DNA of 33,639 nt, from IMG/VR virus record IMGVR_UViG_2718218449_000004. One strand, given 5' to 3'. This document shows, piece by piece, positions 9,063-11,528 of this stretch (positions are counted from its first letter, which is position 1; every line of letters starts with the position of its first letter). This stretch comes from a virus (taxonomy: Duplodnaviria > Heunggongvirae > Uroviricota > Caudoviricetes). The notes under the pieces were generated by a model. That model made no database searches. It had not been told where the DNA came from and saw only the letters and a list, made by a program, of their open reading frames with translations. The translations under genes and the position numbers were made by a program.

Positions 9063-9561
9063 CTTGCCGTATATTCCTCTTGATGAAGAGTATAGCTTGA
9101 ATTTTGCTATGCTTGCCATTGCTATATCTATATTATCTCATAGCAAAAAAGGAGTGTTATCATTAGATATTAATAAAATACAAATTTTTATGTATCTGAT
9201 AAAAAACCCATCAAAAATTGATTATGCTCTTACAGTTTCGGGGAAAAAGCCTGCTTGTGTCGAGTCCCAGTTAACTTATACAATAAAGAGTTTTTCAACA
9301 AATGTAGATATCTTATTCGACAATTCCAAAGTGAAATATCTTATAAAAATTATGTCATTGCGGGGATTGCTCTCAGCTGAGAAAAAAAATAATGAGAGTG
9401 TTAAATTATTTTTATCTGAAAAAGGTAAGGAATTTGCTAGCTCATTGACTGATGGATATTTTAAAGAAATAAAACGACTATCCGAAGCATTGTTACCGCT
9501 ACAAGCATTGCCTACCTCTAAGTTAAACTCTGTTATAAATCAAGTCTTCAAGGAGAAATGA
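9049..9561 (+). CDS. Small hypothetical protein; middle component of the three-gene cassette (LmuC-like by position)
   Basis: 170 aa; start overlaps the hydrolase stop by 14 nt and its stop overlaps the next start (ATGATG), suggesting translational coupling; GAGGT RBS. No motif recognised. Confidence 0.5.
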   Translation: MKKNNLPYIPLDEEYSLNFAMLAIAISILSHSKKGVLSLDINKIQIFMYLIKNPSKIDYALTVSGKKPACVESQLTYTIKSFSTNVDILFDNSKVKYLIKIMSLRGLLSAEKKNNESVKLFLSEKGKEFASSLTDGYFKEIKRLSEALLPLQALPTSKLNSVINQVFKEK

Positions 9562-11528
9562 TGAAATCATATCTCAATATCAATAGTTTGATTCTTGTTG
9601 GCGTTCGTAAAAACTACGTCACTACTTTTTATAAAGGTCTCAATGTTATCTACGGAGACTCTGACACAGGTAAGTCAAGCATTCTGGAGTTTATTAATTA
9701 TCTTTTAGGTGCTAGCTCTATAGATTTAGCAGATGAAATAAAAACATCAGTAAACTATGCTGCTCTTGAAGTAGTGATCAATGATACTGTATTCACAATC
9801 GTAAGAGATATCTATGATCATAAAAAAGCAATAGAAGTTTATCGTTGTAAGTTTGATGATTTACATAAACATTTTCCGAAAAAATACGCTCCTAATTATA
9901 GCCCATTATCAAATGTTGATGGTGTTTTTTCGGAGTTTTTACTTGATAGTCTTAATTTTCCAAAGATTGAAATTAAGGTGTCTCCTTCTAAAGCTCATTC
10001 ACAGATGCGCAGGTTAAGTTTTAGAAATATATATAAATTTGTTTATGTAAGTCAGGATGATATTGGTAGTAAATCTTTCTTGCGATTGGGTGATTGGTCC
10101 CGCTACGCATTTACGAAAGAAGTTTTTAAATACATGTTCAATGTGTTGGATGAAAGCATCGCCAGACTCCAAGGTGAAATATCTGCAAAAAGTAGTTTAG
10201 TAACGGAATTAAATAGGAAGTATCAGATAATATCTGAATTTCTTCGCGATACAGACTATGAAACGATTGAATCAATTGATGATGAGATTAATAGGATAGA
10301 TCTTGTTTTAGAAGAACTTGTTGCAGGTTTGTCTGCTCTCGATAAAAATATGAAAGCGGATTCCATACAGTATACAGAATTGAAAGATGCTCACAATTTT
10401 ATTTCGCTTAAATACAAAGAGTGCATATTAAATATTACTGCGCTTGAGGATAAGATTGATAAATATTCGCGGTTAAAAAATGACTATGATAATGATATTG
10501 AAAAACTCAAAGCGATTAAAACAGCAAATTCTCGCATTGGTGTATTGGATAAGGAAGTATTTTCCTGTCCAGTCTGTGATAGCCACATTAAAATAGATGA
10601 TTCTGATTTTCCATTTGAAATTTCATCAGAAAAAGATCTTAATGAAGAGTTGAATTCACTTAGTCGACGTAGACGAAATATTAATGACATGATCTCAGAA
10701 ATGTCATTTAAATTAAAAAAAGAATCAGGTTATAAAAAGGAATTAGATGAACGACTTGACGAGTTGAGAGAATTGATTGACGAAGAAAGCCAGTCAATGA
10801 TTACACCATTCTTGACTCAGAGAGATTTTTATATTAAAGAGATCTCAAAAAATGAGAAGGTTAGGGAGCAGTTAGTAAAAGATTTGAAGGTTAGAAACCA
10901 GCAAGAGGAACTGCTTGAAAAGTATCAGGTACTGAGAAAAGATATTGAAGCATTAACTGAACGCTTGGAGGCGTTAAAGAAAAACGCACCTAGCATGGAG
11001 GGCATTTTACAAGGTTTGGGTGATAGATTTAGTCAGTATTTGAAGGGTATTAATATCAAAAACAGAACGGGGATAAAAATCTCTGAAAGCTATTACATTC
11101 CTGTTATAAGAGAAAAAGAATATTTTAAAATAACATCCGGAGGTTTGAGAACTATTTCTTCTATTGGGTATCTTTTGTCTATTCTTGATTATGCAATAGA
11201 TCATAATGTTAACCATCCTTTACTTTTGATATTTGATACGGTTGGCAAATATTTAGGGAAACAGACCAAGGAAAAATATTCAAAAGAAACTCTTGCATTC
11301 GAGGATGACCTTGAGGGAATGTCAGATCCGATGAAGTATCAAAATATTTATGAACAACTATTGAATACAGTTCAAAAAGCAGAAAGAAAAAATGTTCCGT
11401 GCCAGATTATATTAGTTGATAATGATTTGCCTAATTCGTTTTCTACTGGTGAACTTTCGAATATTATCGCTCATTATAGCTCGGTTGGTGAGGACGGTTT
11501 GCCTTTAGGTTTAATTGATGACCTTTAA
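9558..11528 (+). CDS. SMC/Rad50-like ABC ATPase with coiled-coil insert and CPVC zinc-hook-like motif (LmuB-like)
   Basis: 656 aa. Walker A GDSDTGKS (aa 33-40); long charged heptad-like region about aa 190-500; CPVC at aa 337-340 (nt 10566-10577); signature-like TSGGL (aa 526-530); Walker B LLLIFD (aa 555-560). Start may be the second ATG at 9561. Confidence 0.7.
   Translation: MMKSYLNINSLILVGVRKNYVTTFYKGLNVIYGDSDTGKSSILEFINYLLGASSIDLADEIKTSVNYAALEVVINDTVFTIVRDIYDHKKAIEVYRCKFDDLHKHFPKKYAPNYSPLSNVDGVFSEFLLDSLNFPKIEIKVSPSKAHSQMRRLSFRNIYKFVYVSQDDIGSKSFLRLGDWSRYAFTKEVFKYMFNVLDESIARLQGEISAKSSLVTELNRKYQIISEFLRDTDYETIESIDDEINRIDLVLEELVAGLSALDKNMKADSIQYTELKDAHNFISLKYKECILNITALEDKIDKYSRLKNDYDNDIEKLKAIKTANSRIGVLDKEVFSCPVCDSHIKIDDSDFPFEISSEKDLNEELNSLSRRRRNINDMISEMSFKLKKESGYKKELDERLDELRELIDEESQSMITPFLTQRDFYIKEISKNEKVREQLVKDLKVRNQQEELLEKYQVLRKDIEALTERLEALKKNAPSMEGILQGLGDRFSQYLKGINIKNRTGIKISESYYIPVIREKEYFKITSGGLRTISSIGYLLSILDYAIDHNVNHPLLLIFDTVGKYLGKQTKEKYSKETLAFEDDLEGMSDPMKYQNIYEQLLNTVQKAERKNVPCQIILVDNDLPNSFSTGELSNIIAHYSSVGEDGLPLGLIDDL

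Follow-up and report, generated by a model that had tools for sequence, protein, structure and literature searches.

Lamassu systems have been proposed to derive from Rad50-Mre11/SbcCD (PMC12663957). Like the LmuB family, Rad50-Mre11 and SbcCD combine a coiled-coil ABC ATPase, a CxxC hook at the coiled-coil apex, and recognition of DNA ends; in contrast, their coiled coils are far longer, their Walker B motif includes the catalytic Glu, Mre11/SbcD is their obligatory nuclease partner, and they act in repair, not abortive infection. According to a 2023 review, many LmuB proteins carry a zinc hook of the form "CPxCG or similar" (PMC10586767). Li et al. solved the structure of Salmonella LmuACB (PDB 9hqu and 9hqx), in which the two hooks are closely juxtaposed and LmuA and LmuC dock beside the hook, with the zinc itself not resolved in the cryo-EM map (bioRxiv 10.1101/2025.03.14.643221). 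In the same study, the zinc hook was needed for defense, such that a hook mutant lost protection, Salmonella LmuB hydrolyzed ATP poorly, and lipase effectors with CTD8/CTD9 domains were named explicitly (bioRxiv 10.1101/2025.03.14.643221).

Short Lamassu systems were described by Haudiquet et al. (PNAS 2025) as having zero, one, or two copies of CxxC and a Walker B motif of the form hhhhD[Q/S/T/E] (PMC12663957). DNA-end sensing by Lamassu has been demonstrated; in Vibrio cholerae, it frees the effector, which then oligomerizes, and the hook-less V. cholerae LmuB still assembles LmuB2 complexes (PMC12663957). Dimerization of LmuB therefore does not require the hook in every case. A hook-bearing Escherichia coli system, Lamassu Ec-Lipase, belongs to short Lamassu clade H and protects against lambda-vir in a manner that requires the Walker A Lys and the lipase His (PMC12663957).

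We analyzed a 33,639-nucleotide stretch of viral DNA assigned to Caudoviricetes (IMG/VR record IMGVR_UViG_2718218449_000004), referred to here as the window. An earlier note, made from the sequence alone, had described the product of positions 9558 to 11528 as a Rad50-like ABC ATPase with a zinc-hook motif in its coiled coil. We assign this gene, with a probability of roughly 0.85, as lmuB, the sensor of a short, "type II-like" Lamassu (ABC-3C) system of the lipase-CTD8/MC4 subtype that is carried as cargo by a P2-like prophage and works by a clasped-dimer mechanism. What the earlier note missed is that the protein is not an orphan Rad50-like ATPase but the LmuB of an annotated Lamassu/ABC-3C defense system.

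The lmuB gene lies on the + strand and encodes an SMC/Rad50-like coiled-coil ABC ATPase of 656 aa (the coordinates 9558 to 11528 include the stop codon). The family assignment is carried by PADLOC profile PDLC03862, which matches aa 2 to 656 over profile positions 3 to 641 of 643 (E value 1.5e-235, 781 bits). A sequence profile of LmuB also matches Salmonella LmuB (9hqu) at 1.9e-11; this value required a profile search, as phmmer with full-length LmuB against PDB sequences returned only a marginal match to 9hqu (0.057). General ATPase models from Pfam (SMC_N, AAA_23, and AAA_21) all scored under their gathering cutoffs, and NCBIfam yielded no passing model for LmuA, LmuB, or LmuC. A full-text literature search with the RefSeq accessions of the three proteins found no match.

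Two further genes on the + strand complete the system. Upstream, lmuA (7839 to 9062) encodes the effector, which joins an N-terminal lipase-like alpha/beta hydrolase to a C-terminal ABC-3C CTD8 oligomerization/docking domain. LmuA matched PADLOC PDLC03851 (3.5e-108) and the Pfam families CTD8 (1.7e-35), DUF676 (4e-09), PGAP1, and LCAT. Its nucleophile elbow, AHSMGG, contains S116, and together with D201 and H226 this residue is invariant in the Enterobacter and Pseudomonas orthologues. Between lmuA and lmuB, lmuC (9049 to 9561) encodes ABC-3C middle component 4 (MC4; Pfam MC4, 5e-27; PADLOC PDLC03869, 1.5e-52). The three genes form a translationally coupled operon in the order lmuA, lmuC, lmuB, with lmuA and lmuC overlapping by 14 nt and lmuC and lmuB by 4 nt in an ATGA start/stop overlap. 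A promoter scan 5' of lmuA returned nothing over shuffled expectation. Enterobacter kobei and Pseudomonas syringae carry the same trio amid unrelated genomic surroundings, and the three-gene Lamassu module is mobile.

The earlier note had placed three ABC head motifs in LmuB, and each occurs where it was claimed. In an alignment of 73 sequences, the Walker A motif GDSDTGKS (aa 33 to 40; 9654 to 9677, + strand) has invariant G33, D34, T37, G38, K39, and S40; the signature-like ABC motif TSGGL (aa 526 to 530; 11133 to 11147, + strand) lies in a stretch with invariant S527, G528, G529, L530, R531, and T532; and the Walker B motif LLLIFD (aa 555 to 560), taken with T561 (11220 to 11240, + strand), has invariant D560 and T561. 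Q166 is conserved as well. Invariant T561 occupies the position of the catalytic Glu that follows the Walker B Asp, and in a profile alignment it pairs with the Q of the Salmonella LmuB motif LILDQ. The sequence LLLIFD-T fits hhhhD[Q/S/T/E], the Walker B consensus of short Lamassu systems. No His is evident where the H-loop would lie (QIILVDND, aa 616 to 623).

We predicted the structure of the LmuB monomer from the alignment of homologues with AlphaFold2 (AF2; mean pLDDT 85.7, pTM 0.67). In this model, aa 1 to 198 and 477 to 656 together form the alpha/beta head. Secondary structure assigned by DSSP places an ascending coiled-coil arm at aa 199 to 326 (10152 to 10535, + strand; helix breaks at 231 to 236 and 265 to 269), an apex loop at aa 327 to 357 (10536 to 10628, + strand), and a descending arm, a single long helix, at aa 358 to 476 (10629 to 10985, + strand). 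The arms are antiparallel and nearly equal, at about 120 residues each, and the helical region from 199 to 476 spans 278 aa, in line with the earlier estimate of roughly 300 residues between the head halves. Model confidence is lowest in the apex loop (pLDDT about 61 to 66), which contains a small beta-hairpin (335-336/343-344) that includes the CPVC motif. As modeled, LmuB has its ABC head interrupted by a short antiparallel coiled coil with an invariant CPxC at the apex, the arrangement expected of LmuB proteins, whose coiled coil is about 20 nm long. The helix break at 265 to 269 falls within the range reported for coiled-coil folding point FP1 of Salmonella LmuB (aa 266 to 276, Salmonella numbering), as compared by residue numbers. 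When the model was searched against the PDB with Foldseek, the best matches were LmuB chains (9uxh_F at 1.9e-20, 9hqx_B, 9hqu_A, and 9nyg_B; E values 1.9e-20 to 1e-15), followed by Rad50 (7zr1, 9e-11) and then by SMC and JetC structures, with JetABC and MukBEF far down.

The CPVC motif occupies aa 337 to 340 on the + strand (10566 to 10577, TGTCCAGTCTGT), exactly where the earlier note had located it, and in the AF2 model it lies outside any globular domain, at the turn that joins the long antiparallel helices. LmuB contains five Cys in total; in simulated placements, the chance of any CxxC was 0.03 in the whole protein and 0.0014 within the 31-aa apex loop. The motif is thus beyond chance. 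When 5.8 billion proteins were searched, 269 matched LmuB; of the best 120 matches, 114 are full-length, and each of these has a central CP[IVL]C. Across 73 aligned homologues with 43 to 87% identity, C337, P338, and C340 are invariant, the surrounding apex loop is hypervariable except for I327/G328 and F353, and C289 is not conserved. No other residue of the loop is a conserved ligand, with H343 present in 13/73 and D341 in 59/73 homologues. When a profile was run against 1.84 billion cluster representatives (50% identity), 3,250 relatives were recovered, and all 108 full-length representatives among the top 150 of them carry a central CPxC. Many of the more distant relatives have a second CxxC 15 to 18 residues downstream of the first, within an insertion of about 10 residues; it is absent from the clade of the present LmuB.

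In a profile alignment, CPVC lines up with CPMC in Salmonella LmuB 9hqu, the motif that the authors of that structure named the zinc hook. Together, the invariance of the Cys residues, their apex placement, and this register indicate that the Rad50-like zinc-hook reading was right in substance. The two outcomes that the earlier note had named as counting against it, a CPVC located in a globular region and cysteines that vary among homologues, were both contradicted. The reading is nevertheless not new, because CPVC corresponds to the hook already described and mutated for the LmuB family; the LmuB hook has been published and mutationally tested in a homologue. When the hook segment alone (aa 290 to 400) was compared with PDB sequences, only chance zinc-finger-like matches (E values 0.46 and 1.5) and no Rad50 hook were found; therefore, hook-level homology to Rad50 is not demonstrable by sequence.

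The two Cys residues could instead belong to a zinc knuckle within a single chain, or to a turn without metal, that caps the coiled coil, leaving dimerization and effector control to other contacts. The AF2 monomer alone already folds CPVC into its small beta-hairpin, the V. cholerae protein forms LmuB2 without a hook, and the absence of resolved zinc from the Salmonella map also favors such a cap. Moreover, the distant relatives with a second CxxC have four Cys per chain in a zinc-ribbon-like arrangement that needs no partner. The present clade, however, has only two invariant Cys and lacks another conserved loop ligand, so a tetrahedral site needs a second protomer, and the juxtaposed hooks and defenseless hook mutant of Salmonella also argue against a purely intramolecular role. 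We consider the knuckle or cap unlikely.

Two other ATPase identities were weighed against LmuB. Homologues are named "exonuclease SbcC" or "Rad50" in databases, and the shared architecture and the Rad50 structures among the Foldseek matches could be taken to indicate a genuine Rad50/SbcC DNA-repair ATPase. Against this, the prophage annotation contains no SbcD/Mre11 gene and no metallophosphatase, the neighbors being the lipase-CTD8 protein and MC4 instead, and the corresponding models scored far under threshold (NCBIfam Rad50_Sulf, 22.7 bits versus a cutoff of 1000; NCBIfam SMC_prok_A, 25.8 versus 729; Pfam SMC_N, 22.9 versus 40). Given also the Thr in place of the catalytic Glu, arms of only about 120 residues, and a gene that is low-GC prophage cargo, a repair function is very improbable. 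The protein could also be read as a hinge SMC (JetC) from a Wadjet-like system, which restricts plasmids by loop extrusion, but this is more improbable still, to the point of being negligible: PADLOC JetC models gave weak partial matches (E values of 6e-4 or worse), and JetABC and MukBEF appear low in the Foldseek list, but the apex is a 31-residue loop rather than a hinge domain, no JetA, JetB, or JetD genes lie nearby, and the LmuB profile scores more than 700 bits higher. A thioredoxin-like reading of CPxC was rejected together with the Rad50/SbcC and JetC readings on the basis of partner genes, thresholds, and fold.

The cassette occupies a low-GC cargo island (7750 to 11560, unstranded) between the P2 gpA gene, which ends at 7749, and the conserved cos/Q region. 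The composition profile gives 31 to 36% GC for the island compared to 50 to 59% for the flanks. P2-family phage genomes align to the flank only (query 3923 to 4101, equivalent to 11622 to 11800 in the window). These features place the Lamassu cassette in the variable gpA-cos-Q (tin/old) hotspot, as cargo of a P2-like prophage that resides in E. coli O157:H7. Strains of E. coli O157:H7, TW14359 among them, carry a 100% identical copy, and the complete cassette was found in 96 of 5,426 complete E. coli genomes. At the TW14359 locus, the RefSeq names are "ABC-three component system protein," "ABC-three component system middle component 4," and "AAA family ATPase." Neither Rfam nor tRNA scans gave a match in the window.

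The present system shares its layout with that of Salmonella. Both LmuB proteins are about 650 to 660 aa with the same arrangement of head, coiled coil, and single CPxC, both belong to three-gene LmuA-LmuC-LmuB systems, and both have a residue other than Glu at the Walker B catalytic position (Q in Salmonella, T here). Their identity in a structural alignment is only about 15%, however, and the effectors differ: the Salmonella system has a Cap4 nuclease with CTD7 and MC3, whereas the present one has a lipase-like hydrolase with CTD8 and MC4. V. cholerae DdmABC (Lamassu Vc-Cap4; PDB 9nyg and 9uxh) belongs to the same family and forms an A1B2C1-type complex, the stoichiometry proposed here, but it uses a Cap4 nuclease as effector, and its LmuB has lost the hook. 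Ec-Lipase is probably a different allele or subfamily from the present system, because its key residues are numbered K42 in LmuB and H215 in LmuA compared to K39 and H226 here.

By analogy with these systems, two LmuB protomers would be held together at the apex, and the most likely clasp is one Zn2+ coordinated by 2 + 2 Cys in the manner of Rad50. The folded coiled coils and LmuC may then hold one LmuA through its CTD8 domain near the hook. The complex would open and free LmuA once it binds a DNA end or replication intermediate and ATP drives engagement of the heads; LmuA could then oligomerize through CTD8, with its lipase killing the infected cell in abortive infection. The earlier guess of DNA-end sensing agrees with the published behavior of homologues (PMC12663957) and, on that basis, probably holds for this protein as well. 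ATP is probably a binding switch with little turnover and not a fuel, given the Thr at the position of the catalytic Glu and the lack of an evident H-loop His; this is consistent with the poor hydrolysis by Salmonella LmuB. As in homologous systems, the likely outcome is protection against phage by abortive infection.

A more specific proposal can be made for the hook of this single-CxxC, lipase-armed subtype, namely that it goes beyond passive clasping and is a Zn-dependent and possibly redox- or metal-sensitive latch that serves as a docking platform for LmuA-CTD8 and MC4 and whose opening commits the complex to release of the lipase. We regard this proposal as speculative and quite unlikely. 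If it were true, then with a head that lacks the catalytic Glu and H-loop His, the complex would be a one-shot, non-hydrolyzing switch.

The finding itself yields no new principle. Its main value is correct annotation, given that databases often label such proteins "exonuclease SbcC," "Rad50," or "AAA family ATPase." The position of a gene for a DNA-end sensor beside the cos site of a P2-like phage raises the question of how firing on the phage's own linear genome is avoided. Because the lipase/CTD8/MC4 subtype is without a solved structure, the locus is a reasonable, though not unique, candidate to extend the mechanism of nuclease-type systems to non-nuclease effectors. For E. coli O157:H7, the assignment identifies LmuB as the sensor of a Lamassu abortive-infection system given to this organism by a P2-like prophage.

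We examined the ATPase head of LmuB, the 656-aa Rad50-like ABC ATPase encoded by lmuB (9558 to 11528, + strand). Directly after the Walker B motif, an invariant threonine, T561, occupies the place of the catalytic glutamate (motif and threonine together, aa 555 to 561, window 11220 to 11240). In the wider relatives of LmuB, the residue that follows the Walker B aspartate is threonine, serine, glycine, or asparagine, and never glutamate. Furthermore, QIILVDND (aa 616 to 623, window 11403 to 11426), the strand expected to hold the histidine of the ABC H-loop, contains no histidine. 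Given the replacement of the catalytic glutamate by T561 and the absence of an H-loop histidine, the protein sequence suggests that the LmuB head would act as an ATP-binding switch with little hydrolysis. Walker B variation in short Lamassu has already been published (PMC12663957); the missing H-loop histidine, unlike that variation, is a point that we infer from the present analysis.

Homologues of LmuB recovered in protein searches (P0005, P0008, P0009, P0092, and others) carry public names such as 'exonuclease SbcC' and 'double-stranded DNA repair protein Rad50'. Such names are misleading, as the scores from curated Rad50/SMC models fall far short of the cutoffs. An N-terminally short, 522-aa version that is 100% identical to LmuB is the representative of a cluster of 1,268 sequences.

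The family includes two forms of the coiled-coil apex. More distant relatives (P0167 to P0264) have a second CxxC, located 15 to 18 aa after the CPxC and within an insertion of approximately 10 residues, resulting in four cysteines per chain. The clade of LmuB lacks this insertion (aa 341 to 357, window 10578 to 10628) and instead has a conserved aromatic residue, F353. Zinc binding may differ between the double- and single-CxxC forms, occurring within one chain versus between chains. Single- and double-CxxC relatives alike, even distant ones, retain (P)YGLIDD at the extreme C-terminus (aa 641 to 656, window 11478 to 11525), where G-L-I-D-D (G651 to D655) is invariant and is preceded by a conserved S641. 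AlphaFold2 confidence for these residues is low (~60), and the GLIDD end may serve as a docking peptide or form a terminal strand.

The Lamassu cassette (window 7750 to 11560) was detected in full in 96 of 5,426 complete E. coli genomes and, at megablast sensitivity, was missing from all 50,697 deposited phage genomes; in O157:H7 strains, it is 100% identical.

Elsewhere in the prophage, a 27-nt inverted repeat (arms 24400 to 24426 and 26302 to 26328, 81% complementary) flanks the 3' end of the tail-fibre gene (23586 to 24905), a chaperone gene (24905 to 25507, +), and two inverted alternates (25479 to 25931 and 25943 to 26356, both -), with a serine recombinase gene (26378 to 26977, +) adjoining. 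The region from 24400 to 26977 looks like a Mu G/P1 C-type invertible host-range segment in the P2 Z/fun position.

The GC-rich, noncoding region between lmuB and the portal gene (11622 to 11845), presumed to be cos, shows conservation in P2-family phages; after the end of the portal gene, the minus strand carries a strong hairpin that resembles a terminator (11840 to 11825). Because the presumed cos adjoins lmuB, the gene for a DNA-end sensor would adjoin the phage's own end-forming site.
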